Shown here: positions 3,001 to 48,099 of the stretch, in pieces | Numbering within the stretch: position 1 is the first letter of the stretch | Layout: each line of letters opens with the position of its first letter | Source: Eledone cirrhosa | Lineage: Eukaryota | Direction of reading: 5' to 3' | NCBI GenBank assembly: GCA_964016885.1 | Contig: OZ024740.1 | Coordinates: 218,116,001 to 218,180,000 of the forward strand | DNA length: 64,000 nt | Notes under the pieces: generated by a model | What the model saw: the letters and a program-made list of their open reading frames with translations, nothing else | Told to the model about the DNA's origin: nothing | Database searches by the model: none | Program-made: the position numbers and the translations under genes

Positions 3001-6000
3001 GTTAGGGTTAGGGTTAGGGTTAGGGCTAGGGTTAGGGTTAGGTTTAGGGTTAGGGTTAGGGTTAGGGTTAGGGTAAAGGTTAGCTGTTAGGGTTAGGGTT
3101 AGGGTTAGGGTTAGGGTTAGGGTTAGGGTTAGGGTTAGGGTTAGGGTTAGGGTTAGGGTTAAGGTTAGGGTTAGGGTTAGGGTGTGTATTAGGGTTAACT
3201 GTTAGGGTTAGGGTTAGCTGTTAGGGTTAGGGTTACTGTTAGCGTTAGGGTTAGGGTTAGGGTTAGGGTTAGGGTTAGGCTTAGGTTTAGGGTTAGCTGT
3301 TAGAGTTAAGGTTAGGGTTGGGTTTAGGGTTAGCTGTTAGGGTTAGTGTTAGGGTTAGCTGTTAGGGTTAGGGTAAGGGTTAGCCGTTAGGGTTAGGGTT
3401 ACTGTTAGGGTTAGGGTTAGGGCTAGGGTTAGGGTTAGTGTTAGGGTTAGTGTTAGGGTTAGTGTTAGTGTTAGGTTTAGATGTTAGGGTTAGGGTTAGG
3501 GTTGGGGTTAACGTTAGGGTTAGGGTTAACTGTTAGGGTTATGGTTAGGGTTAGGGTTAGTTTTAGGGTTAGCTGTTAGGTTTAGGGTTAGCTGTTAGAG
3601 TTAATGTTAGGGTTAGGGTTAGTGTCAGGGTTAGGCTTAGTGTTAGGGTTAGGATTATGGTTAGGGTTAGCTGTTAGGGTTAGTGTTAGGGTTAGATTTA
3701 GGGTTAGCGTTAGGGTTAGTATTAGGGTTAGGGTTAGGGTTAGATTTAGGGTTAGTGTTAGGGTTAGGGTTAGGGTTAGGGATAGGGTTAGGTTTAGGGT
3801 TAGCTGTTAGAGTTAAGGTTAGGGTTGGGGTAAGGGTTAGCTGTTAGGGTTAGTGTTAGGTTTAGTGTTAGTGTTAGTGTTTGGGTTACGGTTAGGTTTA
3901 GTGTTAGGGTTAGGGTTAGGGTTAGGGTTAGGGTTAGGGTTAGGCGCAGGGTTAGGGTTAGGGTTAGGGTTAGGGTTAGGGTTAGGATTAGCTGTTAGGG
4001 TTAGGATTATGGTTAGGGTTAGGGTTAGGGTTAGTTGTTAGGGTTAGGGTTAGGTTTAGGGTTAGGGTTAGGGTTAGGGTTAGGGTTAGGGTTAGCTGTT
4101 AGGGTCAGGGTTACTGTTAGGGTTAGGGTTAGGGTTAGGGTTAGGGTTAGGGTTAGGCGCAGGGTTAGGTTTAGGTTTAGGGTTAGGGTTAGGGTTAGAG
4201 TTAGGATTAACTGTTAGGGTTAGGGTTAGGGTTGGGGTTAGGTTTAGGGTTAGGGTTAGCTGTTAGGGTTAGGATTAGGGTTACGGTTAGGGTTAGGGTA
4301 GGTTGTTAGGGTTAGGGTTAGGTTTAGGGTTAGGGTAGGCTGTTAAGGTTAGGATTAGGGTTAGGCTTAGGGTTAGGGTTAGGGTTAGGGTTAGTGTTAG
4401 TGTTAGCTGTCAGGGTTCGGGGTAGGGTTAGTGTTAGTGTTAGGGTCAGGTTTAGGGTTAGGGTTAGTTTTAGGGTTAGGTTTAGCTGTTACGGTTAGGG
4501 TTAGGGTTAGCTGTTAGGGTTAGGTTTAAGGTTAGCTGTTAGGGTTAGGGTTAGTGTTGGGTTAGGGTTAGGGTTAGGGTTAGTTTTAGGGTTAGCTGTT
4601 AGGTTTAGGGTAAGCTGTTAGGGTTAATGTTAGGGTTATGGTTAGTGTTAGGGTTAGGGTTAGTGTTAGGGTTAGGGTTAGATTTAGGGTTAGCTGTTAG
4701 AGTTAAGGTTATGGTTGGGGTTAGGGTTAGCTGTTAGGGTTAGTGTTAATGTTATTGTTTGGGTTAGGGTTAGGGTTAGGGTTAGGGTTAGGGTTAAAGT
4801 TAGGGTTAGGGTTAGGGTTAGGCTTAGCTGTTAGGGTTAGGGTTAGGGTTAGTGTTAGGGTTAGGTTTAGGGTTAGGATTAGCTTTTAGGGTTAGGGTTA
4901 GGGTTAGGTTTAGGTTTAGAGTTAGGGTTAGGGTTAGGGTTAGCTGTTAGAGTTAGGGTTAGGGTTAGGGTTAGGGTTAGGGTTAGGGTTAGGGTTAGGG
5001 TTAGGCTCAGGTTTAGGGTTAGCTGTTAGAGTTAAGGTTAGGGTTGGGTTTAAGGTTAGCTGTTAGGGTTAGTGTTAGGGTTAGCTGTTAGGGTTAGGGT
5101 AAGGGTAAGCCGTTAGGGTTAGGGTTACTGTTCGGGTTAGGGTTAGGGCTAGGGTTAGGGTTAGTGTTAGGGTTAGTGTTAGATTTAGATGTTAGGGTTA
5201 GGGTTAGGGTTAGGGTTGGGGTTAACGTTAGGGTTAGGGTTAACTGTTAGGGTTATGGTTAGGGTTAGGGTTAGGGTTAGGGTTAGCTGTTAGGTTTAGG
5301 GTTAGCTGTTAGTGTTAATGTTAGGGTTAGGGTTAGTGTCAGGGTTAGGGTTAGTGTTAGGGTTAGGATTAGGGTTAGGGTTAGCTGTTAGGGTTAGTGT
5401 TAGGGTTAGATTTAGGGTCAGCGTTAGGGTTAGGGTTAGGGTTAGGGTTAGGTTTAGGGTTAGCTGTTAGGGTTAGTGTTAGGGTTAGTGTTAGGGTTAG
5501 GGTTAGAGTTAGGGTTAGGGTTAGGGTTAGGCTTAGCTGTTAGGGTTAGGGTTAGGGTTAGGCGCAGGGTTAGGGTTAGGGTTAGCTGTTAGGGTTGGGG
5601 TTAGTGTTAGGCGCAGGGTTAGGGTTAGGGTTAGGGTTAGGGTTAGGGTTAGGTTTAGGGTTAGGGTTAGGTTTAGGGTTAGGGTAGGCTGTTAAGTTTA
5701 GGATTAGGGTTAGGGTTAGGGTTAGGGTTAGGTTTAGGGCTAGGGTTAGTGTTAGCTGTTAGAGTTCGGAGTAGGGTTAGTGTTAGTGTTAGGGTTATGT
5801 TTAGGGTTAGGGTTAGGGTTAGTTTTAGGGTTAGGTTTAGCTGTTACGGTTAGGGTTAGGGTTAGCTGTTATGGTTAGGTTTAGGGTTAGCTGTTAGGGT
5901 TAGGGGTAGGGTTGGGTTAGGGTTAGGGTTAGGGTTAGGGTTAGTTTTAGGGTTAGCTGTTAGGTTTAGGGTTAGCTGTTAGGGTTAATGTTAGGGTTAT

Positions 6001-9000
6001 GGTTAGTGTTAGGGTTAGGGTTAGTGTTAGGGTTAGGGTTAGGGTTAGGGTTAGGGTTAGCTGTTAGGGTTAGTGTTAGGGTTAGATTTAGGGTTAGCGT
6101 TAGGGTTATGGTTAGGGTTAGGGTTAGATTTAGAGTTAGCTGTTAGAGTTAAGGTTAGGGTTGGGGTTAGGGTTAGCTGTTAGGTTTAGTGTTAATGTTA
6201 GGGTTAGGGTTAGGGTTAGGGTTAGGGTTAGGGTTAGCTGTTAGAGTTAGGGTTAGGGTTAGGGTTAGGGTTAGGGTTAATGTTAGGTTTAGGGTTAGGG
6301 TTAGGGTTGGGGTTAGGGTTAGGGTTAGGGTTAGGGTTAGGGTTAGGGTTAGGGTTAGGGTTAGGGTTAGGGTTAAAGTTAGGGTTAGGGTTAGGGTTAG
6401 GTTTAGCTGTTAGGTTTAGGGTTAGTGTTACGGTTAGGTTTAGGGTTAGGGTTAGCTTTTAGGGTTAGGGTTAGGGTTAGGTTTAGGGTTAGGGTTAAGG
6501 TTAGGGTTAGGGTTAGTGTTAGGGTTAGGTTTAGAGTTAGGGTTAGCTGTTAGAGTTAGGGTTAGGGTTAGGGTTAGGGTTAGGGTTAATGTTAGGTTTA
6601 GGGTTAGGGTTAGGGTTGGGGTTAGGGTTAGCCGTTAGGGTTAGGGTTAAGGATAGGGTTAGGGTTAGGGTTAGGTTTAGGGTGTGTGTTAATTGTTAGG
6701 GTTAGGGTTAGGGTTAGGGTTAGTATTAGGGTTTGCTGTTAGGGTTAAGGTTAAGGTTACGGTTAGGGTTAGGGTTAGGATTAGCTGTTAGGGTTAGGGT
6801 TAGGTTTGGGGTTAGGGTTAGGGTTAGGGTTAGCTGTTAGGGTTAGTGTTAGTGTTTGTGTTTGGGTTAGGGTTAGTGTTAGGATTAGGGTTAGGGTTAG
6901 AGTTAGGGTTAGGGTTAGGGTTAGGGTTAGGGTTAGGGTCAGGGTTAGGGTTAGGCGCAGGGTTAGGGTTAGGGTTAGGGTTAGTGTTAGGGTTAGGGTT
7001 AGGGTTAGGATTAGCTGTTAGGGTTAGGGTTAGGGTTGGGGTTAGGGTTAGGATTAGCTGTTAGGGTTAGGGTTAGGGTTAGGGTTAGGGTTAGGGTTAG
7101 GGTTAGGGTTAGGCGCAGGGTTAGGGTTAGGGTTAGGGTTAGGGTTAGGGTTAGGGTTAGGATTAGCTGTTAGGGTTAGGGTTAGGGTTGGGGTTAGGGT
7201 TAGGGTTAGGATTAGCTCTTAGGGTTAGGATTAGGGTTAGGGTTAGGGTTAGGGTTAGTTGTTAGGGTTAGGGTTAGGTTTAGGGTTAGGGTAGGCTGTT
7301 AAGGTTAGGATTAGTGTTAGGGTTAGGGTTAGGGTTAGGGTTAGGGTTAGTGTTAGTGTTAGCTGTGAGGGTTCGGGGTAGGGTTAGTGTTAGTGTTAGG
7401 GTTAGGTTTAGGGTTAGGGTTAGTTTTAGGGTTAGGTTTAGCTGTTACGGTTAGGGTTAGGGTTAGCTGTTAGGGTTAGGGTTAGGGTTAGGGTTAGGGT
7501 TAGGGTTAGGGTTAGGGTTAGGGTTAGTTTTAGGGTTAGCTGTTAGGTTTAGGGTTAGCTGTTAGGGTTAATGTTAGGGTTATGGTTAGTGTTAGGGTTA
7601 GGGTTAGTGTTAGGGTTAGATTTAGGGTTAGGGTTAGGGTTAGGGTTAGGGTTAGTGTTAGGGTTAGGTTTAGGGTTAGCTGTTAGAGTTAAGGTTAGGG
7701 TTGGGGTTAGGGTTAGCTGTTAGGGTTAGTGTTAATGTTCTTGTTTGGGTTAGGGTTGGGGTTAGGGTTAGGGTTAGGGTTAAAGTTAGGGTTAGGGTTA
7801 GGGTTAGGCTTAGCTGTTAGGGTTAGTGTTAGGGTTAGTGTTAGGGTTAGGTTTAGGGTTAGGGTTAGGGTTAGGGTTAGGGTTAGGGTTAGGGTTAGGG
7901 TTAGGGTTAGCTGTTAGAGTTAAGGTTAGGGTTGGGGTTAGGGTTAGCTGTTAGGGTTAGTGTTAATGTTAGTGTTTGGGTTAGGGTTGGGGTTAGGGTT
8001 AGGGTTAGGGTTAAAGTTAGGGTTAGGGTTAGGGTTAGGCTTAGCTGTTAGGGTTAGGGTTAGGGTTAGTGTTAGGGTTAGGTTTAGGGTTAGGGTTAGC
8101 TTTTAGTGTTAGGGTTAGGGTTAGGGTTAGGGTTAGGTTTAGAGTTAGGGTTAGGGTTAGGGATAGGGTTAGCTGTTAGAGTTAGGGTTAGGGTTAGGGT
8201 AAGGGTTAGGGTTAATGTTAGGTTTAGGGATAGGGTTAGGGTTGGGGGTTAGGGTTAGCCGTTAGGGTTAGGGTTAGGGATAGGGTTAATGTTAGTGTTA
8301 GGGTTAGGGTTAGGGCTAGTGTTCGGGTTCGGGTTAGGGTGTGTGTTAGCTGTTAGGGTTAGGGTTAGGGTTAGGGTTAGGGTTAATGATAGGGTTAAGG
8401 TTAGGGTTAGGTTTAGGGTGTGTGTTAATTGTTAGGGTTAGGGTTAGGGTTACTTAGGATTAGCTGTTAGGGTTAGGGTTAGGGTTGGGGTTAGGGTTAG
8501 GGTTAGGGTTAGCTGTTAGGGTTAGGGTTAGGGCTAGGGTTAGCATTTAGGGTTAGCGTTAGGGGTAGGGTTAGGGTTAATGTTAGGGTTAGGGTTAGGG
8601 TTAGGGTCAGAGTTAGGGTTACTTGTTAGGGTTAGGGTTAGGGTTAGGGTTAGTGCTAGGGTTAGGGTTAGGTTTAGTGTTAGGGTTAGGGTTAGGGCTA
8701 GCTGTTAGGGTTAGGGTAAGGGTTAGGGTTAAGGTTAGGGTTAGGGTTAGGGTGTGTATTAGGGTTAGCTGTTAGGGTTAGGGTTAGGGTTAGCTGTTAG
8801 GATTAGGGTTACTGTTAGTGTTAGGGTTAGGGTTAGGGTTAGGGTTAGGGTTAGGCTTAGGTTTAGGGTTAGCTGTTAGAGTTAAGGTTAGGGTTGGGTT
8901 TAGGGTTAGCTGTTAGGGTTAGTGTTAGGGTTAGGGTTAGGGTTAGGGTTATTGTTAGCTGTTAGGGTTAGGGTTAGGGTTAGGGTTAATTTTAGGGTTA

Positions 9001-12000
9001 GAGTTAACTGTTAGGGTTATGGTTAGGGTAAGGGTTAGGTTTAGGGTTAGCTGTTAGGGTTAGGGTTAGCTGTTAGGGTTAGGGTTTGGATTAGGGTTAG
9101 TGTTAGGGTTAGGGTTAGGGTTAGGGTTAGGGTTAGGGTTAGGGTTAATGGTCGGGTTAGGGTTAGGGTTAGGTTTAGGGTTAGGATTAGGGTTAGCTGT
9201 TAGGGTTAGATTAGGGTTAGCTGTTATCGTTAGGGTTAGGGTTAGGGTAAGCTGTTAGTGTTAGTGTTAGCTGTTAGGGTTAGGGTTAGGGTTAGCTGTA
9301 AGGTTAGGGTTAGGGTTGGGTTAGGGTTAGGGTTAGGGTTAGCTGCTAGGGTTAGGGTTAGGGTTAGGGTTAGGGTTAACTGTTAGGGTTAGGGTTAGAT
9401 TTAGGTTTAGGGTTAGTTTTAATGTTAGGGTTAGCTGTTAGGGTTAGGGTTAGGGTTAGTGTTAGGGTTAGGGTTAGGGTTACTATTAGGGTTACGGTTA
9501 GGTTTAGGGTTAGGGTTAGTGTTAGGGTTAGTGTCAGGGTTAGTGTTAGGGTTAGCAGTTAGGGTTAGCTGTTAGGGCTAGGGTTAGGGTTAGGGTTAGG
9601 GTTAGGGTTAAGGTTAGGGTTCGGGTTAACTGTTAGGTTTATGGTTAGGGTTAGGTTTAAGTTTAGGATTAGCTGTTAGGGTTAGGGTTAGCTGTTAGTG
9701 TTAAGTTAAGGGTTAGGGTTAGTGTTAAGTTTAGGGTTAGTGTTAGGGTTAGGGTTAGGGTTAGGCTTAGCTGTTAGGGTTAGGGTTAGGGTTAGGGTTA
9801 GGGTTAGCGTTAGGGTTAGAGTTAGGGTTAGGTTTAGGGTTAGAGTTCATGGTAGGGTTAGGTTTAAGTTTAGGATTAGCTGTTAGGGTTAGGGTTAGCT
9901 GTTAGGGTTAGGTTTAGGTTTAGGGTTAGCTGTTAGGGTTAGGGTTAGGGCTAGGGTTAGGGTTAGGGTTAGCTTTTAGGGTTAGCGTTAAGGGTAGGGT
10001 TAGGGTTAATGTTAGGGTTAGGGTTAGGGTTAGGGTCAGAGTTAGGGTTAGTTGTTAGGGTTAGGGTTAGGGTTAGGGTTAGGGTTAGGGCTAGGGTAAT
10101 GTTAGGGTTAGGGTTAGGGTTAGGGTCAGAGTTAGGGTTAGTTGTTAGGGTTAGGGTTAGGGTTAGGGTTAGGGTTAGGGCTAGGGTTAGGGTTAGGGTC
10201 AGGGTTAGGGTTAGGGTTAGCTGTTAGGGTTAGTGTTAGGGTTAGTGTTAGGGTTAGGGTTAGAGTTAGGGTTAGGTTTAGGCTTAGCTGTTAGGGTTAG
10301 GGTTAGGGTTAGGCGCAGGGTTATGGTTAGGGTTAGCTGTTAGGGTTAGTGTTAGTGTTAGTGTTTGGGTTAGGGTTAGGGTTAGGGTTAGGGTTAGAGT
10401 TAGGGTTACGTTTAGGGTTAGGGTTAGGGTTAGGGTTAGGTTTAGGGTTGGGGTTAGGGTTAGGTTTAGGGTTAGGGTAGGCTGTTAAGGTTAGGATTAG
10501 GGTTAGGGTTAGGGTTAGGGTTAGGGTTAGGGTTAGGGTTAGGTTTAGGGTTAGTGTTAGCTGTTAGGGTTCGGGGTAGGGGTAGTGTTAGTGTTAGGGT
10601 TAGGTTTAGGGTTAGGGTTAGGGTTAGTTTTAGGGTTAGGTTTAGCTGTTACGGTTAGGGTTAGGGTTAGCTGTTAGGGTTAGGGTTAGGGTTAGCTGTT
10701 AGGGTTAGGGTTAGTGTTGGGTTAGGGTTAGGGTTAGGGTTAGGGTTAGTTTTAAGGTTAGCTGTTAGGTTTAGGGTTAGCTGTTAGGGTTAATGTTTGG
10801 GTTATGGTTAGTGTTAGGGTTAGGGTTAGTGTTAGGGTTAGGGTTAGGGTTAGGGTTAGCTGTTAGGGTTAGTGTTAGGGTTAGGGTTAGGGTTAGGGTT
10901 AGGGTTAGGGTTAGGGTTAGGGTTAAGGTTAGGGTTAGGGTTAGGGTTAGTGTTAGGGTTAGGGTTAGGGTTAGGATTAGGGTTAGGGTTAGCTGTTAGA
11001 GTTAAGGTTAGGGTAGGGGTTAGGGTTAGCTGTTAGGGTTAGTGTTAATGTTAGTGTTTGTGTTAGGGTTAGGGTTAGGGTTAGGGTTAGGGTTAAGGTT
11101 AGCTGTTAGAGTTAGGGTTAGGGTTAGGGTTAGGGTTAGGGTTAATGTTATTTTTAGTGTTAGGGCTAGGGTTGGGGTTAGGGTTAGCCGTTAGGGTTAG
11201 GGTTAGGGATAGGGTTAATGTTAGTGTTATGGTTAGGGTTAGGTCTAGGGTTCGGGTTCGGGTTAGGGTGTGTGTTAATTGTTAGGGTTAGGGTTAGGGT
11301 TAAGATTAGGGTTAGCTGTTAGGGTTAAGGTTAGGGTTACGGTTATGGTTAGGGTTAGGGTTAGGATTAGCTGTTAGGGTTAGGGTTAGGGTTGGGGTTA
11401 GGGTTAGGGTTAGGGTTAGCTGTTAGGGTTAGCGTTAGGGTTAGGGTTAGGGTTAATGTTAGGGTTAGGGTTAGGGTTAGTGTCAGAGTTAGGGTTAGTT
11501 GTTAGGGTTAGGGTTAGGGTTAGGGTTAGGGCTAGGGTTAGGGTTAGGGTTAGGGTTAGGTTTAGGGTTAGGGTTAGGGTTAGCTGTTAGGGTTAGGGTA
11601 AGGGTTAGGGTTAAGGTTAGGGTTAGGGATAGGGTGTGTATTAGGGTTAGCTGTTAGATTAGGGTTAGGGTTAGGGTTAGGGTTAGCTGTTAGAGTTACG
11701 GTTAGGGTTGGGTTTAGGGTTAGCTGTTAGGGTTAGTGTTAGGGTTAGTGTTAGGGTTAGGGTTAGGGTTAGGGTTATTGTTAGCTGTTAGGGTTAGGGT
11801 TAGGGTTAGGGTTAGGGTTAATTTTAGGCTTAGAGTTAACTGTTAGGGTTATGGTTAGGGTAAGGTTTAGGGTTAGGGTTATCTGTTAGGGTTAGGGTTA
11901 GCTCTTAGGGTTAGGGTTAGGGCTAGGGTTAGGGTTAGGGTTAATGGTCGGGTTAGGGTTTGGTTTAGGGTTAGGATTAGGGTTAGCTGTTAGGGTTAGG

Positions 12001-13129
12001 GTTAGATTAGGGTTAGCTATTATCGTTAGGGTTAGGGTTAGGGTAAGCTGTTAGGGTTAGTGTTAGCTGTTAGGTTTAGGGTTAGGGTTATCTCTTAGGT
12101 TAGGGTTAGGGTTGGGTTAGGGTTAGGGTTAGGATTAGGGTTAGCTGCTAGGGTTAGGGTTAGGGTTAGGGTTAGGGTTAGGGTTAGATGTTAGGGTTAG
12201 GGTTAGATTCAGGTTTAGGGTTAGTTTTAATGTTAGGGTTAGCTGTTAGGGTTAGGGTTAATGTTAGGGTTAGGGTGTGTATTAGGGTTAGCTGTTAGGG
12301 TGTGTATTAGGGTTAGCTGTTAGGGTTAGGGTTAGGGTTAGGGTGTGTATAAGGGTTAGCTGTTAGGGTTAGGGTTAGGGTTACTGTTAGGGTTACGGTT
12401 AGGTTTAGGGTTAGGGTTAGTGTTAGGGTTAGTGTCAGGGTTAGTGTTAGGGTTAGCAGTTAGGGTTAGCTGTTAGGGTTAGGGTTAGGGTTAGGGTTAG
12501 GGTTAGGGTTAAGTTTAGGGTTCGGGTTAACTGTTAGGGTTATGGTTAGGGTTAGGTTTAAGTTTAGGATTAGCTGTTAGGGTTAGGGTTAGCTGTTAGC
12601 GTTAAGTTAAGGGTTAGGGTTAGTGTTAAGTTTAGGGTTAGTGTTAGGGTTAGGGTTAGGGTTAGGCTTATCTGTTAGGGTTAGGGTTAGGGTTAGGGTT
12701 AGGGTTAGCGTTAGGGTTAGAGTTAGGGTTAGGTTTAGGGTTAGGGTTCATGGTAGGGTTAGGTTTAGGTTTAGGTTTAGGGTTAGCTGTTAGGGTTAGG
12801 GTTAGGTTTAGGGTTAGCTGTTAGGGTTAGGGTTAGTGTTTGGGTTAGGGTTAGGGTTAGTTTTAGGGTTAGGGTTAGCTGTTAGGGTTAGGGTTAGGGT
12901 TAGGGTCACGGTTAGGCTTAGGGTTAGGGTTAGTGTTAGTGTTAGTGTTAGGGTTAGTGTTAGGCTTAGCTGTTAGGGTTAGGGTTAGGGTTAGGGTTAG
13001 GCGTAAGGTTAGGGCTAGGTTTAGGTTTAGGGTGTGTATTAGGGTTAGCTGTTAGGGTTAGTGTTAGGGTTAGCTGTTAGATTTAAGGTTAGGGTTAGGG
13101 TTAGGGTTAAAGTCAAGGTTAAGGTTAGG
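1..13129 (+). repeat. Degenerate telomeric-type (TTAGGG)n array with recurrent variants (TTAGCTG, TTAGTG, TTAGGT, TTAAGG, GGCGCAGGG, TTCGGG)
   Basis: Continuous TTAGGG hexamers with the G-rich strand on +; the TTAGCTG heptamer appears on most 60-bp lines. The array runs off the window start. Confidence 0.97.
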
Positions 13130-16100
13130 CTAAATCTAAGCTTAATCTCGCCTAAATCTAAGCTAAATCTAAGCTAAATCTACGATAATATAAGCTAAAT
13201 CTCACATAAATCTAAGCTAAATATGAGCTAAATCTCATCTAATTCTAATCTAACTATAAGCTAAATCTCACGTAAATCTAAGCTAAATCTAAGCTCAATC
13301 TCATCTAAATCTAAGCTAGATCTAAGCTAAATCTCACCTAAATCTGAGCTAAATATGAGCTAAATCTCACATAAATCTTAGCTAAATATAAGCTAAATCT
13401 CATCTAAATCTAAGCTAAATCTAAGCTAAATCTCACCTAAATCTAAGCTAAATATAAGCTAAATCTCACCTAAATCTAAGTTAAATATAGGTTCCATCTA
13501 AGATAAATCTCACCCAAATCTCAGATAAATCACACCTAAATCTAAGCTCAATATAAGCTAAATCTCACCTGAATCTAAGCTAAATCTAAGCTACATCTAA
13601 GATAAAAGTCACCTAAATTTAAGCTGAATATAAGCTAAATCTCGTCTAAATCTAAGCTAAAAATAAGATAAATCTCACATAAATCTAAGCTAAATCTCAC
13701 CTAAATTTCAGCTAAATGTAAGCTAAATCTCACATAAATCTAAGCTAAGTATAGGCTAAATATCACCTAAATCTAAGCCAAATCTAAGCTAAGCCTCACC
13801 TAAATCTAAGATAAATATAAGCTAAATCTCACGTAAATTTAAGCTAAATATAAGCTAAATCTCACCTAAATCTAAGCTAAATCTAAGCTAATTATAAGAA
13901 AAATCTTACCTAAATCTAAGCTAAATCTCACCTAAATCTTCGCAAATATAAGCTAAATGTCACCTAAATCTAAGCTAAATCTCACCTAAATCAAAGCTAA
14001 ATATAAGCTAAATCTCACCTAATTCTAAACTAAATATAAGCTAAATCTCACCTAATTCTAAGCTAAATATATGCTAAATCTCACTTAAATCTAAGCTAAA
14101 TCTCACCTAAATATAAGCTAAATCACACCGAAATCTAAGTTAAATGTAAGCTAAATCTCACCTAAATCTAAGCTAAATCTAAGCTAAAGCTCACCTAAAT
14201 CTAAGCTAAATCTCACCTAAATCTAAGATAAATCTCACTTAAATATATGCTAAATGTAAGTTAAATCTCACCTAAATCTAGGCTAAATCTAAGCTAAATC
14301 TCATCTAAATCTAAGCTAAATCTAAGCTAAATCTAAGCTAAATCTAAGCTAAATCTAAGCTAAATCTAAGATAAATCTCACTTAAATCTAAGATAAATTA
14401 CGCATAAATCTAAGCTAAATATAAGCTAAATCTCACCTAAATCTCAGCTAAATCTAAGATAAATCTCACCTAAATCTAAGCTAAATATAAGCTAAATATC
14501 ACCTAAATCTAAGCTAAATCTCACCTAAATCTAATCTAAATACGAGCTTAATCTCACCTAAATCTAAGTTAAATATAAGCTAAATCTCACCTGAATCTAA
14601 GCTAAATGTAAGCTAAATCTAAGCTAAATCTCACCTAAATCTAAGTTAAATCTAAGCTAAATATCACCTAAATCTAAGCTAAATCTAAGCTAAATCTGTC
14701 CTAAATCTAAGCTAAATATAAGCTAAATCTAAGGTAAATATAAGCTAAATCTCACCTAAATCTAAGCTAAATCTAAGCTAAATCTCACCTAAATTTAAAC
14801 TAAATGTAAGCTAAATCTCACCTAAATCTAAGCTAAATATAAGCTAAATCTCACCTGAATCTAAGCTAAATCTAAGCTAAATCTCACCCAAATCTAAGCT
14901 AAATCTAAGCTAAATCTAACCTAAATCTAAGCTAAATCTAAGCTAAGTCTGACATAAATCTAAGCTAAATATAAGCTAAATCTCACCTAAATCTAAGCTA
15001 AATCTAAGCTAATTATAAGCTAAATCTTACCCAAATCTAAGCTAAATCTAAGCTAAATCTCACCTAAATCTAAGCAAATATAAGCTAAATGTCAACTAAA
15101 TCTAAGCTAAATCTCATCTAAATCTAAGCTAAATATAAGCTAAATCTCACCTAATTCTAAGCTAAATATAAGCTAAATCTCACGTAAATCTAAGCTAAAT
15201 ATAAGCTAAATATAAGCTAAATCTCACCTAAATATAAGCTAAATATAAGTCAAATCTCACCTAAATCTAATCTAAATCTAAGCTAAATCTGACCTAAATC
15301 TAAGCTAAATATAAACTAAATCTAAGGTAAATATAAGCTAAATCCCACCTAAATCTAAGCTAAATCTAAGATAAATCTCACCTAAATTTAAGCTAAATGT
15401 AAGCTAAATCTCACCTAAATCTAAGCTAAATATAAGCTAAATCTCACCTGAATTAAAGCTAAATCTAAGCTAAATCTCACCTAAATCTAAGCTAAATCTA
15501 AGCTAAATCTAACCTAAATCTAAGGTAAATCTAAGCTAAGTCTCACCTAAATCTAAAATAAATATAAGCTAAATCTCACCTAAATCTAAGCAAATATCAG
15601 CTAAATGTCACCTAAATCTAAGCTAAATCTCACCTATATCTAAGCTAAATATAAGCTAAATCTCACGTAAATCTAACCTAAATATAAGCTAAATATAAGC
15701 TAAATCTCACCTAAATATAAGCGAAATCTAAGCTAAATCTCACCTAAATCTAAGCTAAATATGAGGTAAATCTCATTTAAATCTAAGCTATATCTCATAT
15801 AAATATAAGCTAAATATAAGTCAATTCTCACCTAAATCTAAGATAAATCTCACCGAAATCTAGGCTAAATCTAAGATAAATCTCACCTAAATCTAAGATA
15901 AATCACACCTAAATCTAAGCTAAATATAAGCTAAATCTCACCTAAATATAACCTAAAGCTAACCTGAATCTAAGCTAAATCTCACCTAAATCTAAGCTAA
16001 ATATGATCTAAATCTCACCTAAATCTAAGCTAAATCTCACATAAATATAAGCTAAATATAAGTTAAATCTCACATTAATCTAAGCTAAATCTTAACTAAA

Positions 16101-19100
16101 TCTAAGCTAAATCTAAGCTAAATCTCACCCAAATTTAACCTAAATGTAAGCTAAATCTCACCTAAATCTAAGCTAAATAAAGGCTAAATCTCACCTAAAT
16201 CTAAGATATATCTAAGTTAAATCTACTCTAAATATAAGCTAAATATAAGCTAAATCTCACCTAACTCTAAGCTAAATCTAAGCTAAATCTAAGTTAATTT
16301 CACCTATATATAATCTAAATCACACATAAATCTAAGCTAAATGAAAGCTAAATCTCACCTAAATCTAAGCTAATTCTCACGTAAATCTAAGCTAAATCGA
16401 AGCATAATATAAGCTAAATGTCACCTAAGTCTAAGCTAAATATAAATTAAATCTCACCTAAATCTAAGCTAAATATAAGCTAAATCTCACCTTATTCTTA
16501 GTTAAATATAAGCTAAATCTCATCTAAATCTAAGCTAAATCTAAGCTAAATATATGCTAAAGCTCACCTAAATCTCAGCTAAATCTCACCTAAATCTAAG
16601 CTAAATATGAGCTAAATCTCAACTAAATCTAAGCTAATTCTCACTTAAATATAAGCTAAATCTCACCTAAATCTAACCTGAATCTAAGCTAAATCTCACC
16701 TAAATATAAGCTAAATATAACCTAAATCTCATCCAAATCTAAGCTAAATCTGACCTAAATCTAATCTAAATATAAGATAAATCTCGTCTAAATCTAGGCT
16801 AAATATAAGATATATCTCACCTAAATCTAAGCTAAATCGAAGCTAAATCTGACCTAAATCTAAGCTAAATCTAAGCTAAATCTCGTCTAAATCTAGGCTA
16901 AATATAAGCTAAATCTCACCTAAATCTAAGCTAAAACTAAGCTAAATCTCACCTAAAATTAAGCTAAATGTAAGCTAAATCTCACCTAAATGTAATCTAA
17001 ATATAAATTAAATCTAACCTAAATATAAACTAAATCTCACCTAAATCTAAGCTAAATCTAAGCAAATTATAAGCTAAATCTTACCTAAATCTAAGCTAAA
17101 TCTAAGCTAAATCTAAGCTAAATCTCACCTAAATCTTCGCAAATATAAGCTAAATGACACCTAAATCTAAGCTAAATCTCACCTAAATCTAAGCTAAATA
17201 TAAGCTAAATCTCACCTAATTCTAAGCTAAATAAAAGCTAAATATCACTTAAATCTAAGCTAAATATATGCTAAATCTCACCTAAATCTAAGCTAAATAT
17301 AAGCTAAATCTCACCTAATTCTAAGCTAAATATTAGCTAAATCTCACTTAAATCTAAGCAAAATCTCACCTAAATATAAGCTAAAGCACACCGAAATCTA
17401 AGCTAAATGTAAGCTAAATCTCACATAAATCTAAGCTAATTCTCACCTAAATCTAAGCTAAATCTAAGCTAAATCTCACCTAAATCTAAGCTAAATCTAA
17501 GCTATTTATAAGCTAAATCTTACCTAAATCTAAGCTAAATATAAGCTAAATCTCACCTAAATCTAAGCAAATATAAGCTAAATGTCACCTAAATCTAAGC
17601 TAAATATAAGCTAAATCTCACCTAATTCTAAGCTAAATATAAGCTAAATCTCACGTAAATCTAAACTAAATATAAGCTAAATATAAGCTAAATCTCAGCT
17701 AAATCTCACCTAAATATAAGCTAAATCTAAGCTAAATCTCACCTAAATCTAAGCTAAATATGAGGTAAATCTCATTTAAATCTAAGCTAAATCTCATATT
17801 GATATAAGCTAAATATAAATCAAATCTCACCTAAATCTAATCTAAATCTAAGCTACATCTGACCTAAATGTAAGCTAAATATTAACTAAATCTGAGGTAA
17901 ATATAAGCTAAATCTCACCTAAATCTAAGCTAAATCTAAGATAAATCTCACTTAAATGTAAGCTAAATGTAAGCTAAATCTCACCTAATTCTAAGCTAAA
18001 TATATGCTAAATCTCACTTAAATCTAAGCTAAATCTCACCTAAATATAAGCTAAATCACACCGAAATCTAAGTTAAATGTAAGCTAAATCTCACCTAAAT
18101 CTAAGCTAAATCTAAGCTAAAGCTCACCTAAATCTAAGCTAAATCTCACCTAAATCTAAGATAAATCTCACTTAAATATAAGCTAAATGTAAGTTAAATC
18201 TCACCTAAATCTAGGCTAAATCTAAGCTAAATCTCATCTAAATCTAAGCTAAATCTAAGCTAAATCTAAGCTAAATCTAAGCTAAATCTAAGCTAAATCT
18301 AAGATAAATCTCACTTAAATCTAAGATAAATTACGCATAAATCTAAGCTAAATATAAGCTAAATCTCACCTAAATCTCAGCTAAATCTAAGCTAAATCTC
18401 ACCTAAATCTAAGCTAAATATAAGCATAAATCTCACCTAAATCTAATCTAAATACGAGCTTAATCTCACCTAAATCTAAGTTAAATATAAGCTAAATCTC
18501 ACCTGAATCTAAGCTAAATGTAAGCTAAATCTAAGCTAAATCTCACCTAAATCTAAGTTAAATCTAAGCTAAATATCACCTAAATCTAAGCTAAATCTAA
18601 GCTAAATCTGTCCTAAATCTAATCTAAATATAAGCTAAATCTAAGGTAAATATAAGCTAAATCTCACCTAAATCTAAGCTAAATCTAAGCTAAATCTCAC
18701 CTAAATTTAAACTAAATGTAAGCTAAATCTCACCTAAATCTAAGCTAAATATAAGCTAAATCTCACCTGAATCTAAGCTAAATCTAAGCTAAATCTCACC
18801 CAAATCTAAGCTAAATCTAAGCTAAATCTAACCTAAATCTAAGCTAAATCTAAGCTAAGTCCTGACATAAATCTAAGCTAAATATAAGCTAAATCTCACC
18901 TAAATCTAAGCTAAATCTAAGCTAATTATAAGCTAAATCTTACCTAAATCTAAGCTAAATCTAAGCTAAATCTCACCTAAATCTAAGCAAATATAAGCTA
19001 AATGTCAACTAAATCTAAGCTAAATCTCATCTAAATCTAAGCTAAATATAAGCTAAATCTCACCTAATTCTAAGCTAAATATAAGCTAAATCTCACGTAA

Positions 19101-21892
19101 ATCTAAGCTAAATATAAGCTAAATATAAGCTAAATCTCACCTAAATATAAGCTAAATATAAGTCAAATCTCACCTAAATCTAATCTAAATCTAAGCTAAA
19201 TCTGACCTAAATCTAAGCTAAATATAAACTAAATCTAAGGTAAATATAAGCTAAATCCCACTAAATCTAAGCTAAATCTAAGATAAATCTCACCTAAATT
19301 TAAGCTAAATGTAAGCTAAATCTCACCTAAATCTAAGCTAAATATAAGCTAAATCTCACCTGAATTAAAGCTAAATCTAAGCTAAATCTCACCTAAATCT
19401 AAGCTAAATCTAAGCTAAATCTAACCTAAATCTAAGCTAAATCTAAGCTAAGTCTCACCTAAATCTAAAATAAATATAAGCTAAATCTCACCTAAATCTA
19501 AGCAAATATCAGCTAAATGTCACCTAAATCTAAGCTAAATCTCACCTATATCTAAGCTAAATATAAGCTAAATCTCACGTAAATCTAACCTAAATATAAG
19601 CTAAATATAAGCTAAATCTCACCTAAATATAAGCGAAATCTAAGCTAAATCTCACCTAAATCTAAGCTAAATATGAGGTAAATCTCATTTAAATCTAAGC
19701 TATATCTCATATAAATATAAGCTAAATATAAGTCAATTCTCACCTAAATCTAAGATAAATCTCACCGAAATCTAGGCTAAATCTAAGATAAATCTCACCT
19801 AAATCTAAGATAAATCACACCTAAATCTAAGCTAAATATAAGCTAAATCTCACCTAAATATAACCTAAAGCTAACCTAAATCTAAGCTAAATCTCACCTA
19901 AATCTAAGCTAAATATGATCTAAATCTCACCTAAATCTAAGCTAAATCTCACTTAAATATAAGCTAAATATAAGTTAAATCTCACATTAATCTAAGCTAA
20001 ATCTTAACTAAATCTAAGCTAAATCTAAGCTAAATCTCACCCAAATTTAACCTAAATGTAAGCTAAATCTCACCTAAAACTAAGCTAAATAAAGGCTAAA
20101 TCTCACCTAAATCTAAGATATATCTAAGTTAAATCTACTCTAAATATAAGCTAAATATAAGCTAAATCTCACCTAACTCTAAGCTAAATCTAAGCTGAAT
20201 CTAAGTTAATTTCACCCTATATATAATCTAAATCACACATAAATCTAAGCTAAATGTAAGCTAAATCTCACCTAAATCTAAGCTAATTCTCACGTAAATC
20301 TAAGCTAAATCGAAGCAAAATATAAGCTAAATGTCACCTAAGTCTAAGCTAAATATAAATTAAATCTCACCTAAATCTAAGCTAAATATAAGCTAAATCT
20401 CACCTTATTCTTAGTTAAATATAAGCTAAATCTCATCTAAATCTAAGCTAAATCTAAGCTAAATATATGCTAAAGCTCACCTAAATCTAAGCTAAATCTC
20501 ACCTAAATCTAAGCTAAATATGAGCTAAATCTCAACTAAATCTAAGCTAATTCTCACTTAAATATAAGCTAAATCTCACCTAAATCTAACCTGAATCTAA
20601 GCTAAATCTCACCTAAATATAAGCTAAATATAACCTAAATCTCATCCAAATCTAAGCTAAATCTGACCTAAATCTAATCTAAATATAAGCTAAATCTCGT
20701 CTAAATCTAGGCTAAATATAAGATATATCTCACCTAAATCTAAGCTAAATCGAAGCTAAATCTGACCTAAATCTAAGCTAAATATAAGCTAAATCTCGTC
20801 TAAATCTAGGCTAAATATAAGCTAAATCTCACCTAAATCTAAGCTAAATCTAAGCTAAATCTCACCTAAAATTAAGCTAAATGTAAGCTAAATCTCACCT
20901 AAATGTAAGCTAAATATAAATTAAATCTAACCTAAATCTAAGCTAAATCTAAGCTAATTCTCACCTAAATCTAAGCTAAATCTCACCTAAATTTCAGCTA
21001 AATGTAAGCTAAATCTCACCTAAATCTAAGCTAAATATAGGCTAAATATCACCTAAATCTAAGCTAATAATCTACTATGCCTCACCTAAATCTAAGATAA
21101 ATATAAGCTAAATGTCACGTAAATTTAAGCTAAATATAAGCTAAATCTCACCTAAATCTAAGCTAAATCTAAGCAAATTATAAGCTAAATCTTACCTAAA
21201 TCGAAGCTAAATCTAAGCTAAATCTAAGCTAAATCTCACCTAAATCTTCGCAAATATAAGCTAAATGACACCTAAATCTAAGCTAAATCTCACCTAAATC
21301 TAAGCTAAATATAAGCTAAATCTCACCTAATTCTAAGCTAAATAAAAGCTAAATATCACTTAAATCTAAGCTAAATATATGCTAAATCTCACCTAAATCT
21401 AAGCTAAATATAAGCTAAATCTCACCTAATTCTAAGCTAAATATTAGCTAAATCTCACTTAAATCTAAGCAAAATCTCACCTAAATATAAGCTAAAGCAC
21501 ACCGAAATCTAAGCTAAATGTAAGCTAAATCTCACATAAATCTAAGCTAATTCTCACCTAAATCTAAGCTAAATCTAAGCTAAATCTCACCTAAATCTAC
21601 GCTAAATCTAAGCTATTTATAAGCTAAATCTTACCTAAATCTAAGCTAAATATAAGCTAAATCTCACCTAAATCTAAGCAAATATAAGCTAAATGTCACC
21701 TAAACCTAAGCTAAATATAAGCTAAATCTCACCTAATTCTAAGCTAAATATAAGCTAAATCTCACGTAAATCTAAACTAAATATAAGCTAAATATAAGCT
21801 AAATCTCAGCTAAATCTCACCTAAATATAAGCTAAATCTAAGCTAAATCTCACCTAAATCTAAGCTAAATATGAGGTAAATCTCATTTAAAT
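13130..21892. repeat. 11-bp satellite GCTAAATCTAA with 33-bp sub-repeat (GCTAAATCTCA-CCTAAATCTAA-GCTAAATATAA)
   Basis: Pure runs (e.g. 14310-14370) shift one base per 10-bp block, giving period 11; three monomer types alternate. Confidence 0.97.
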
Positions 21893-22092
21893 NNNNNNNN
21901 NNNNNNNNNNNNNNNNNNNNNNNNNNNNNNNNNNNNNNNNNNNNNNNNNNNNNNNNNNNNNNNNNNNNNNNNNNNNNNNNNNNNNNNNNNNNNNNNNNNN
22001 NNNNNNNNNNNNNNNNNNNNNNNNNNNNNNNNNNNNNNNNNNNNNNNNNNNNNNNNNNNNNNNNNNNNNNNNNNNNNNNNNNNNNNNNNNNN
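21893..22092. other. Assembly gap (200 N)
   Basis: Exactly 200 N; a round size indicates a scaffolding join, so adjacency across it is not sequence-supported. Confidence 0.99.
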
Positions 22093-22321: not shown

Positions 22322-22614
22322 GATATTGCAAGACATAGGTAGAAAAGATAAAGGAAAAGCTGACAAACTATTAAAGCAAATGAAGCAACATACATACATA
22401 AATACATACATGATGGTTGCCCCCTCGTTATTGAGTATGGCCATTGCACGATATACCATTATTAATAACTATTAATTAATTCTATCGTGCAATGCCTGAG
22501 CGTGAAGATATTTTTAAAGTGAGGAAAGACTGTGCACTGAGCCAATCCCACTCTCTGAGCGACAGTAGCTATAACCAGAAAAGAAGAAAAGATCAACATC
22601 ATCGGTAACTACTG

Positions 22615-22895
22615 AGCCGCAGGTTTTATATCGGAGATATCCCAGTTTCCTGAGTTGCCTTCTCCTAGAAGAATGCTCTGACAAAGGCTAGGGGTCCTTC
22701 TCCCTCAGTGGTTCAACCGCGCAGTACATGTGTATATACATATTTACATACACAACGGTGGCCATTGACTCTTATGAGTTCTTCCGCCCTTTGTCAGGTT
22801 TTGTTTTTGGTCCTTCAGGCTGTCCAAAATCACCCTCCTCACCAAGTAAACTTGGTGGGGTTGCCCGTTTAGTCGCCGACGACCCGACCATGCGA
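22615..22895 (-). mobile_element. Probable non-LTR retroelement 5' leader remnant(s) between TACA/TA repeats
   Basis: Minus strand 22645-22725 aligns by eye to the RTE leader at 44342-44432 (shared CGGT..AACC, TAGCCTT, CTAGGAGAAGG..AACTC). Confidence 0.5.
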
Positions 22896-22944
22896 CACAC
22901 ATATATACATATATACATACATACATATATATATACATATATAC

Positions 22945-23547
22945 AAAAGGGGAGGGCCAGCAGCTGACAATAAATGTAGGCTATGTAAAACAAAGATCGA
23001 GGATGTAAGCCACATTGTTGCCAGCTGCGAAAGAATGTCATCTCGCTACTACCTCCCCATGAGACACGATGGGATAGCTAGAACCATCTGGAACGCACTT
23101 CGGAAAACAAAATTAACAACAAACGAGGAAGAATATATTGAGACAGATGGCACTAAGGAATACTGGTGGAACCTGAAAATAAAAACTGCCACCAAATTAA
23201 AGCACAACCGGCCTGAAATTGTTGTTTGGGACCACACATCGAAAACGTGTTCTGTTGTGGAGATCAGCTGCCCACTTGATGTAAACGTTGTCAGAAAAAT
23301 ACAGGAGAAGGAGGACATCTACGGACCATTGATGGGGAGTTTGCAAATCCAGTATCCAAGATACACCTTTAGCTTCATACCCGTCATTATTGGAGCTACG
23401 GGTTATATACCAACCCGCTTGGACCAAAGTGTGACTGAACTTGGATTTGCGGACAAAAAGCACAGCTCCCTAATTCATAGTCTACAAATGGCTGCGATAG
23501 CTGGAACCTTCAAAATTTGCAAAACATTCTTGCGATTCAAGAGATGA
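22945..23547 (+). pseudogene. C-terminus of an RLE-type non-LTR retrotransposon ORF (R4/Dong-like), 5'-truncated
   Basis: The frame extends upstream of the listed ORF: CRLC-x8-H-x4-C knuckle (from 22975), RHD motif, NRPEIV...VEISCP PD-(D/E)xK-like core, PVIIGATG. A short 3' UTR ends in TA/TACA repeats near 23632. Confidence 0.88.
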
Positions 23548-41905: not shown

Positions 41906-41929
41906 ATTGGTTATAGAGTAGTCGCCACT

Positions 41930-44143: not shown

Positions 44144-44146
<3 letters not shown>

Positions 44147-44330
44147 GGGGGGGAGGCAAAGGAAAGTGATCGCGTCTCTCACAGCCTCTCCTCTCCAGGT
44201 GTAGTGATTGCTGTAGGACTGCTACTTGGCTGTGCCTAGTGGAAAGTTCTTGCTAATGGCCTCTCCTACACTACTGTGTCCACAGCAGCACCTTCACGTG
44301 GTACCCTCTGTTCTCACTGAGCCTGCTGTG
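44144..44330 (+). ncRNA. Candidate HDV/CPEB3-like self-cleaving ribozyme at the RTE 5' end
   Basis: P2 CACAGCAG/CTGCTGTG, P3 ACC/GGT, L3 TTCACGT, P1 3' strand CCCTCT able to pair with the G run at 44144; long hairpin-forming J1/2. Confidence 0.62.
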
Positions 44331-44726
44331 TGGCGCAATCGGGTGCTCGGCGGTATAACCAGGTGGGCAGACTGGGCTCGTTAGCCTTGGTTGGCAGCCA
44401 GTCTAGGAGAAGGAAAACTCTGACTCCAAACCCTCACTCCGCTGCCTTGCGGGTGCTCTCGGGAGAGGGAAAGGCTATGGGAGTGAACCCAGACAGAAAA
44501 TCCGGAGTAGAGACCGGAAGGCGGTAGGCTGTCGAATCTTGACCCCTTTCCGGCAACTCCTGCAGTCAACCAGACTCCAAACGTACTGCATTGCATTCCT
44601 TTGGATCACGTCTCTAGCGGTAGGAGGGACCATTGAAGTCCCACTGGTCAGCTACCGCCCACCTTGAGCTGGGCAGCCCCCGGCCAATAATGGTGCTGAC
44701 CCGACACAGTCTGCCCGCTTCAATAG

Positions 44727-47700
44727 GTGCTTGGAGCTAGGACAAAATCTGAAGAGCAGACTGTAAACCCTGCACCAGCAAATAAACAAAAACCGCATAC
44801 CCAGCTACCAGTCTTGCGACTGGCCACCTGGAATGTCAGGAACATGTGCCCTGGCATCACTGACGAATTGCGACAGATAAATGACAGCAGAAAAACAGCA
44901 GTCATCAATGCCGAATTGAAAAGACTGAACATTGACATAGCGGCGCTGCAAGAGACCAGACTCGCCGCAGACGGCATGCTACGGGAGAAGGACTACACCT
45001 TCTGCTGGCAGGGGAGACCCGCCGAGGAGGCCCGCCAGCACGGCGTCGGGTTCGCCGTGAGGAACGGCTTACTCCCCATGATAGTCCCTCCTGCAAATGG
45101 CTCGGAGCGCGTCCTCTCTCTTAGTCTTTCAACATCATCGGGGAAGGTAAACATAGTTAGCGTTTATGCCCCAACACTCTGCTCTCCTCAAAAAATAAAA
45201 GACCGGTTCTATGAGGAGCTCGACGCCACCATCAACAAGATACCAGGGTCGGAGCCCATCTTCCTGCTGGGCGATTTCAACGCAAGGGTGGGATCCGATC
45301 ATAGGGCATGGCCAGATTGCCTCGGACACTTCGGCGTAGGAAAGATGAATGAAAATCGCCAGAGGTTGTTGGAGCTTTGCTCTTACTGGAAACTCTGCAT
45401 TTCCAACACATTTTTCAGGACTAAGCCACAACACCAGGTCTCATGGAGGCACCCAAGGTCTGGACACTGGCACCAGCTAGATGTGATCATCGCCAGGCGA
45501 GCCCACCTCGGCAGTGTGCTTCTCACGCGCAGCTTCCACAGTGCTGACTGTGATACAGACCACTCCCTGGTGTGCAGCAGGGTCCGACTGGCGCGAAAGA
45601 AGATCCACCACACTGGAGGGAAAAGCCGCCCACGCATCAACGCCGCCAGGGCAACCAACCCAGAGCTTCGCTCAGAATTCATCAACTGCATGGAGGAGGC
45701 CCTTAAAGATCACGCAGCCACATCCATCGAGGAGAGGTGGCAGCTCATCCGTGACACCACTTTCAGAATAGCCATGTCTACCCTGGCGAAGAAGGAGCGG
45801 AAAAACCAAGACTGGTTTCAAGCTCACCTGCCTCAGATGGAGCCTGTCATTGCCGCCAAGAGGGAAGCACTGGTTAACTATAAGCGCGACCCATCGGACA
45901 AGAACCTGGCTACTCTGAGAACAGCCAGAAGCGACGCCCAAAGGACGATGCGCCAACACCTACTGGCAGAACCTATGCCAGAACATCCAGTCCTGTGCTG
46001 ACAGTGGTAACGTGCAAGGGATGTACGAAGGGATGAAGAAAGTATTCGGGCCTACTGCCAGCAACATCACTCCACTGAAGCCCAGGGATGGCGAAGTCAT
46101 CAAAGACCGAGCAAAACAGATGGAGAGGTGGGCCGAGCATTACCAGAACCTCTACTCCACTGAGACTGCGGTCACCAAGTCTGCACTCGCTGGAATTTCT
46201 GCTTTGCCTGTCATCGAGGAGCTTGACCTGCCCCCGACAAAGGAGGAACTGAACAGAGCTATCGACTCACTCGCTCGGGGCAAGGCATCAGGCTAAGACG
46301 GCATCCCTGCGGAAGTCATCCAGTGCGGGAAGCCAGCCCTTCTGGGCCATCTCCACGAGCTGCTCTGCCAGTGCTGGGAGGAGGGTTCTGTCCCCAAGGA
46401 CATGCGAGATGCAAACATTGTGACGCTGTATAAAAACAAGAGGGACAGAAGCGACTGCAACAACTACAGAGGCATATCAGCACCGTCGGTAAGGCATTCG
46501 CCAGGGTGGTCCTGAAGAGGTTGCAAATACTTGCAGAGCGTGTGTACCCCGAGTCCCAGTGCGGTTTTAGGGCGGAGAGGTCCACAATCGACATGATCTT
46601 CTCACTCAGACAGCTTCAAGAAAAGAGTCGAGAGCAGAGGCAGCCCCTCTATGTGGCTTTTGTCGAGCTGGCTAAGGCGTTCGACAATCAGCAGGGGGGG
46701 GGCTTTTTGCACTCCTGGGGAGGATCGGTTGCCCTCCAAAACTGTTGAAACTCATCACCTCTTTTCACGACGGTATGCAGGGGACGGTGCAGTTTGACGG
46801 ATCACCCTCAGAGCCGTTCCCCATCCAGAGTGGAGTGAAACAGGGTTGCGTCCTGGCACCGGCGCTCTTCGGAATTTTCTTCTCCCTTGTCCTGTCCTAT
46901 GCCTTCAGGACGTCCGACGACGGAATGTTGCTCCACACCAGGTCTGACGGCAGGCTGTTCAACCTCGCACACCTCAGAGCCAAGACCAGAGTACGCCAGG
47001 TGCTGGTCAGGGAGATCCTTTTTGCTGACGATGCCGCCCTAACATCCCACACGCAGCCAGGTCTCCAGAGGCTGGTCAGCTCCCTGGCACTCGCTTGCCA
47101 AGAGTTCGGCCTTACTATCAGCCTGAAAAAGACGGAGATAATGGGCCAGGGCGTCGGATAGGTCCCCAGCATCAGTGTCGGCGATCACGGCTTGCAAGTG
47201 GTGAATGAGTTCACTTACCTGGGATCCACAGTCTCCAGCAACCTGTCTGTCGAACCAGAGCTGAACAGACGGATAGGGAAAGCTGCTGCTGCCATGGCTA
47301 AGCTCTCCAGGAGAGTGTGGGAAAACAACATGCTCACCATAACCTACAAGATCGCAGTGTACCGAGCCTGCGTACTGAGCACCCTACTCTACGGCAGCGA
47401 GAGCTGGACAACATACGTCCGACAAGAACGCCGCCTCAACAGCTTCCACATGCGGTGTCTTCGACGGATCCTTGGCATCTCCTGGAAGGACCGTGTACCA
47501 AACAGAGACATCTTAAACCAGACAAATATGCCAAGCATGTACGCCCTCCTCACGCAGAGTCGACTGCGCTGGCTCGGGCACGTCCGCCACATGCAGGACG
47601 GTCGCATTCCTAAAGACATCTTGTACGGTGAGCTCACCACAGGATTCCGATCCATAGGACGTCCACAGCTGCGATACAGGGATGTGTGCAAACGCGACCT

Positions 47701-47962
47701 GAGGACTACGGACATCGGTGTGGACACCTGGGAGGAGACAGCTGCTGACCGCTCTGCCTGGTGTCGGACAGTGAGGAAAGGCGTTTCCACGGCTGAGGAA
47801 AGGAGGACGCGGCTGTGGTCAGACAGGCGAGACGAGAGAAAGACCACTGCAGCAACAACCCAGGCGTACCCATCGACCTTCACGTGCAGCAACTGTGCCA
47901 AAGACTGCCACTCCAGAATTGGGCTGTTCAGTCACAGCAGACGCTGCTTATCATCAAACTAG
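44727..47962 (+). pseudogene. RTE ORF (AP endonuclease + reverse transcriptase), disrupted
   Basis: TWNVR, LQET, GVGF, VYAPT, GDFNA, TDH; QCGFR, GVKQGCVLAP, FADD, YLGS, WLGHV, CxxC..SRIGL.SH. Stops at 46294 and 47159; frameshifts or deletions near 45945, 46480 and 46690. Confidence 0.95.
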
Positions 47963-48099
47963 CCCCCCCCCCCCCTGGTGCAATCCATTGTCTATCGAGA
48001 CAGAAGGGAGCCATCATTTATATATATATTCCATGTGTAGACAATGAGTTAGCAAAAATTATAGATGGTCGGACAAAATACCATTCAATATGACGATGG

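Follow-up and report, generated by a model that had tools for sequence, protein, structure and literature searches.

A predicted, covarying H-type pseudoknot in a LINE leader and a non-autonomous element of Eledone cirrhosa

The window analysed here is a 64,000-nt stretch of Eledone cirrhosa DNA (GCA_964016885.1, contig OZ024740.1, 218,116,001-218,180,000, forward strand). It contains two copies of a small domain, copy A (22.7 kb, minus strand) and copy B (44.35-44.42 kb, plus strand), at the positions where they had been predicted (Table 1). Both had been taken for retroelement leaders. This was right for copy B, which belongs to the 5' UTR of a decayed LINE (family B); it is located upstream of the APE and RT regions, with about 215 nt of the element in front of it. 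Family B probably belongs to the RTE clade, judging from its one APE-RT frame, its short tail and the domain in its leader. Copy A, on the other hand, is inside a non-coding element, A1. Comparison of genome copies showed that A1 is 537 nt long, with the motif near position 250; its head is 77-83% identical to leader loci of RTE family D, and its 3' end is RTE-like and followed by an (ATGT)n tail. A contig of another organism matches the copy A region up to 22713, with a microsatellite past that point. The open reading frame at 22873-23547, on the strand opposite to copy A, belongs to a different element. It appears as a C-terminal fragment of another non-LTR element, head to head with A1, in which a cysteine-histidine knuckle and a restriction-like endonuclease pattern can be seen by eye (Pfam zf-RVT, weak, E 0.008). 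Elsewhere in the window are a broken LTR-retrotransposon pol region with RNase H and integrase matches (39829-43800, minus strand) and two long, strongly skewed blocks of tandem or simple repeats (1-13000 and 13000-22000).

Table 1. Coordinates of the domain, its helices and the host elements in the window
Feature	Position	Strand	Remark
GGT..ACC hairpin, copy B	44352..44360	+	lineage-restricted, outside core
Copy B, whole module (S1 start to conserved CAAACC)	44365..44432	+	near identity to OegopSINE 154-222
S1, copy B	44365-68 with 44376-79	+	loop is the S2 5' strand; one conserved G-U
S2, copy B	44369-75 with 44398-404	+	stem named in the original prediction
P3 inner hairpin, copy B	44384..44395	+	GCC/GGC, loop length variable
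P4 3' hairpin, copy B	44407..44420	+	GAG/CTC, nearly invariant AAGG in loop
Copy A, domain	22652..22705	-	
S1, copy A	22705-702/22694-691	-	3/4 pairs
S2, copy A	22701-695/22673-667	-	
P3, copy A	22688-675	-	third pair broken in copy A
P4, copy A	22664-652	-	
Family B LINE (putative RTE clade), decayed, full length	44144..48017	+	stops and frameshifts; leader ~580 nt
Family B LINE, APE frame	44727-46001	+	PF03372, E 4e-12
Family B LINE, RT	46676-47161	+	PF00078, E 7e-12
Element A1, 5'-truncated copy (element positions 51-537)	22410..22895	-	non-autonomous

The pattern TAGCCTT-N(8-30)-GAGAAGG has two matches in the window, against 0.01 expected and none in 100 shuffles. As predicted, the long stems of the two copies differ in sequence but pair fully (AGACTGG/CCAGTCT in copy B and AGAAGGA/TTCTTCT in copy A, 7/7 each), and the GAG/CTC hairpin is found. 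Hardly any other copy shares the AGAAGGA strand of copy A, which occurs at 2 places genome-wide, and its first A is missing from the other 29 listed copies of the family; thus, the stem of the family has 6 bp. The GGT..ACC hairpin that had been described for both copies was seen in families B, B2 and A1; families C, D and A2, the metagenome families and the Ceph-SINEs lack it, and it therefore is not part of the core. In the B lineage (window 44340-44364, plus strand; L008-L019 and L406), a longer hairpin 5' of S1 with an 8-nt loop containing TATAA was observed, with apparent compensatory changes by eye; this may be the true form of the GGT..ACC hairpin. When folded singly, copy B was better than its shuffles (z -2.67) but copy A was not (z +0.47). 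A covariance model trained without copy A nevertheless recovers it with 30.7 bits (E 2e-7).

Judging from sequence similarity, the motif is almost certainly the conserved domain already known from RTE 5' UTRs, which is also the Ceph-SINE domain's 3' half (Kojima 2018, PMC5786205; Akasaki 2010 cited there). By eye, copy B resembles the domain in OegopSINE, AviRTE and RTE-3_BF, and since printed copies are nearly identical to copy B, the domain sequence was already known. Copy L408 agrees with the printed Sepioth-SINE1 and has 76.6 bits with model R1; 20 tRNA-headed copies of the Ceph-SINE type, from a scan of genome contigs, have 65-77 bits with a model built from the sequences of this analysis. 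The published domain and ours share the sequence, the mid-leader location, the carriers (RTE LINEs and non-autonomous elements) and the occasional presence of more than one copy. The difference is that the running text of the paper has no RNA structure, whereas a pseudoknot and covariation are added here. No RTE content was found in PMC10085705, and no description of the pseudoknot fold in the literature searched, though one may exist in Akasaki 2010, Repbase Reports, patents, supplements or figures. The expectation that no Rfam family covers the motif was borne out: Rfam 15 scans of both loci at E<=10 gave chance matches only, and among the 150 of 167 matches listed for the whole window at E<=1, none lies over either copy. 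The pseudoknot fold with its covariation appears to be new; what is known is the sequence domain.

The core pattern occurs at 26,386 places in the Eledone cirrhosa genome, against 3 for a control pattern, and at least seven families carry the motif there. The first 100 matches listed are mostly from A2, a sister element of A1. The Ceph-SINE tail has no match in this genome. We also observed a 45-bp satellite built from the domain's 3' half and lacking S1 and the 5' strand of S2 (L209-L238; G000, C12 at ~16.6-16.85 Mb, and C302). In metagenomes, 118 stretches fit the pattern, most by chance, and 51 HMM matches come from about 26 loci. Among contigs of prokaryotic genomes, 21 of the 23 matches are true copies and 2 are by chance; the Ceph-SINE copies and RTE leader (L397-L419) on contigs of three bacterial MAGs are most likely animal host DNA. 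In viral contigs, 120 stretches fit the loose pattern, but the sequence HMM scored none of them, and the tight pattern gave none.

Covariation was determined for 20 real copies aligned by sequence alone. The rows of the A families were left out of this and the following test because their register differs by a one-column shift. The long stem, S2, shows 97.9% pairing, and 4 of its 7 pairs have two-sided change, in agreement with the original prediction of a structured cis-element common to diverged non-LTR elements, the long stem of which is kept by compensatory change. A second helix, S1 (GGGC/GCTC), is 97.5% paired with two-sided change at 3 of its 4 pairs and a conserved G-U. In S1 and S2 together, 34 cells have two-sided change compared with 10.0 in shuffles (0/500), and slid controls are 21-48% paired. 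RNAalifold found S2 together with the hairpins P3 and P4. P3 is nearly invariant, without two-sided change. Since the strands of S1 flank the 5' strand of S2, S1 crosses S2, and the two covarying helices thus define a predicted H-type pseudoknot. We also applied a home-made, tree-aware G-test with two null models to 82 of 125 copies (A families, gapped rows and duplicate rows dropped), which represent few independent lineages. An S1 pair ranked first (E 0.04 and 0.00 under the two nulls), followed by an S2 pair (E 0.09 and 0.013), and S1 or S2 account for 5 of the ten best among the 1431 pairs; beyond the top S1 and S2 pairs, none of the 1431 has E<0.05.

The same helices were scored by eye in 18 published elements, the hosts of which we take, from the Repbase name codes, to be cephalopods, birds, reptiles, fish, lamprey, amphioxus, sea urchin, leech, sea hare and sea anemone. 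All 126 S2 pairs and 71 of the 72 S1 pairs are formed, the inner position of S1 showing five pair types. P3 has 53 of 54 pairs, with loops of 4-8 nt, and P4, where printed, has 47 of 48, with an A-U to G-C change in four elements (GGG/CCC). Two other pairings considered by eye were dropped, namely that of the loop TTGG with a downstream CCAA, and that of GCTC with GGAG, which is broken in family D.

In the structural model that we consider probable, S1 (4 bp) and S2 (6-7 bp) would form simultaneously and stack, with P3 in the long loop, P4 behind and the invariant purines displayed; a 1-nt loop could be provided by the first A of S2, which is nearly invariant. Alternating S1 and S2 conformers would yield the same covariation. 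The strand order (S1, S2, S1', hairpin, S2') is that of three-stem H-type pseudoknots, the topology of the coronavirus frameshift element, although there is no homology and the context here is non-coding, so that a slippery site is not to be expected. A role as a frameshift stimulator was dropped because of this context.

Thus, the pseudoknot of the original prediction is supported, but by S1 and S2; the pairing then proposed to form the knot, CCTT with AAGG in the P4 loop, is probably wrong. The two strands are indeed complementary, and 90% of the cells are paired, but covariation support is missing (8 unpaired cells; 1 of 80 two-sided), and in the tree-aware G-test these pairs rank 79-474 of 1431 (E>60), without significance. 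That S2 and a loop-loop contact of CCTT and AAGG make up the pseudoknot, as the only or an alternative conformation, is therefore unlikely. The near invariance of CC and GG speaks for the contact, as do a two-sided change to U-A in the CC/GG part of two related old copies (L258/L386 and L387), G-U in two other copies, and the minimum-energy fold of copy A alone, which contains GCCUU:AAGGC. However, the U-A next to the CC/GG part is broken without compensation in 7 of the 16 published elements with both sides printed, and the same CC is required by the GCC/GGC hairpin, which is kept in nearly all published elements. Considering the U-A change in the related old copies and the lack of two-sided change in P3, the contact may represent a second conformer, with the same low probability.

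Compensatory change in two crossing helices indicates that the domain acts as RNA. Kojima 2018 (PMC5786205) reported the domain also in the leaders of two LINEs outside the RTE clade, Ingi-3_AC and R4-1_ADi, and in SINEs whose tails it could not match to any LINE. Its capture by such unrelated LINE leaders and SINEs would favour a host-facing role over recognition by an RTE protein. Its presence in leaders as 2-4 tandem units would also speak for a host-facing role. We tentatively propose that the domain is a module engaging the host ribosome. In autonomous LINEs, the knot would help to load ribosomes on a long, structured leader with upstream AUGs. In the non-coding derivatives, the module would keep the RNA on ribosomes, where freshly synthesised reverse transcriptase could be captured. 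Ribosome engagement would in this way serve both LINEs and SINEs. The proposed logic is that of the Alu domain of 7SL-derived SINEs, an RNA fold thought to improve capture of the LINE protein at ribosomes, although sequence and fold are unrelated and ribosome binding is putative here; a hagfish SINE mobilised by RTE is also reported to keep an Alu-domain fold.

In family B, the leader has 3-10 other AUGs upstream of the endonuclease motif, and 4 of 5 copies, all dead, have no in-frame AUG in the open stretch before this motif; the missing AUG may be family-wide damage. The module precedes the ORF's open stretch by about 330-480 nt, and this variable distance is a point against ribosome engagement. 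Two others are that A2 is the most abundant carrier here and widespread despite a weak S2 (at most 5/6 pairs) and a 3-bp S1, and that IdioSINE2, according to PMC5786205, retains only 23 bp of the domain. Two further knot candidates were observed in the leader. One, just 3' of the domain (44439-44475, plus strand), consists of a CCGC/GCGG hairpin, the loop of which, GCCTT, could pair with an AAGGC about 20 nt on; a candidate of this type occurs in families B and D and in L148. The other (44657-44690, plus strand) is a small knot 12 nt before the ATG at 44690. This ATG is doubtful as a start codon because it is out of frame with the endonuclease ORF of family B and the contigs of two other organisms differ there.

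The same fold could instead be a binding site for the RTE protein, for RNP assembly or completion of the 5' junction, although we consider this fairly unlikely. A1 and A2 keep the domain together with an RTE tail, and bipartite RTE derivatives are reported to keep, repeatedly, a piece of the 5' UTR and the 3' end. There is also a precedent in silkmoth R2, the protein of which is reported to bind a motif in the 5' RNA. This folded RNA of Bombyx R2 is likewise a structured 5' RNA of a non-LTR element, but it overlaps the ORF and reportedly lacks conservation in other species, whereas the domain here is non-coding and found across phyla. Against an RTE-protein site speak the reported presence of the domain in leaders of Ingi and R4 elements and in SINEs whose tails are unmatched, the different 5'-UTR pieces kept by other RTE-derived SINEs, and the near invariance of the sequence across phyla while RTE proteins presumably diverge.

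A third reading is that the domain is mainly an element of DNA or nascent RNA, such as an internal Pol II promoter or factor site, with pairing secondary. In this direction point the tandem units in leaders, the speculation in Kojima 2018 (PMC5786205) that the domain binds a transcriptional regulator, and Pr77 of L1Tc, reported to be promoter and ribozyme at once. A DNA site, however, predicts no compensatory changes in two crossing helices; moreover, the distance from the 5' end ranges from 0 to about 350 nt, and the domain is kept in tRNA-headed SINEs. We therefore regard this reading as quite improbable. As for the tandem units, leaders with 2-4 units of about 70 nt were found (L102, L104, L132, L170, L171, L174, L175, L179, L199 and L406), and units within one leader were seen to differ by compensatory changes in S2.

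The knot may also mark or protect the 5' boundary of the RNA, as a block to a 5'-3' exonuclease, a stop for reverse transcription or a slow ribozyme, although this is rather unlikely. All 8 copies of one metagenome family, which sit in different flanks, start 0-3 nt before S1, and the RTE-5_PSi consensus and the SINE copy L402 start at the S1/S2 junction. This S1-starting family (L099, L124, L126, L141, L158, L164, L191 and L198) is short and non-autonomous, and L198 appears complete, with a target-site duplication. The compact fold with its many invariant purines is also in line with a boundary role, as are the HDV-like and twister ribozymes known from RTE leaders. However, the 8 S1-starting copies may share one founder, and upstream heads are usually kept: 17 of 30 pattern-found A1/A2 copies are full length and start about 200-250 nt upstream of the motif (only 2 of the 30 stop 15 nt or less from it), 5 of the 7 copies of family B retain the head about 215 nt upstream, and 18 of 20 Ceph-SINE copies keep the B-box-like tRNA head. 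The kept heads argue against efficient self-cleavage and do not fit the cleavage-defined 5' end of HDV-like ribozymes.

Within the boundary reading, a slow self-cleaving ribozyme of a new class is the less likely part, and we consider it very unlikely. Like the HDV-like ribozymes of R2, RTE, R4, L1Tc/Ingi and Vingi, the domain is a pseudoknotted module in the 5' region of non-LTR elements, and its 7-bp helix around a 3-bp GCC/GGC hairpin, followed by GG and a hairpin, recalls P1, P3, J1/4 and P4. Unlike them, it is mostly not at the 5' end and has no Rfam match, and the partner of its second helix is 5', not 3', of P4. In the nested double pseudoknot of HDV, the P2 3' strand should be behind P4, whereas the covarying partner of GCTC lies upstream, and no partner for GCTC was found 3' of P4 in families B, D and A. 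In tandem arrays, the next unit could supply an HDV-like 3' partner. Furthermore, P3 is separated from the long helix by 2 nt, unlike in HDV, and its loop varies in length (4-8 nt), offers no CC for P1.1 and lacks the conserved active-site bases. HDV-like ribozymes have a catalytic C in J4/2; here, a C-A-A-A stretch is present 3' of P4. The hammerhead core has CUGANGA with GAAA, and that of twister UAA..YGC with AAGC; a string scan of both copies and their flanks found neither. The original statement that the motif is not hammerhead, HDV or twister thus holds by the HDV features, the core strings and the Rfam models alike, and catalysis is disfavoured as far as the sequence indicates.

Speculatively, and with considerable doubt, the domain may be regarded as a portable pseudoknot device, conserved in hosts as distant as sea anemones and birds and exchanged between RTE, Ingi, R4 and SINE families. 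It might be a ribosome-binding IRES module, or an unrecognised ribozyme or exonuclease barrier with helices like those of a circularly permuted HDV scaffold, which could be completed across the unit boundary in tandem arrays. Gene-writing platforms are reported to employ RTE UTRs and to optimise them empirically; thus, a defined leader module may have practical value. The conservation of SINE 'bodies' and pieces of RTE leaders across phyla has been tentatively attributed to factor binding on DNA. The covarying pseudoknot shifts this question from DNA to RNA, and the domain would form a new family of the Rfam type, its copies numbering tens of thousands in a single genome.
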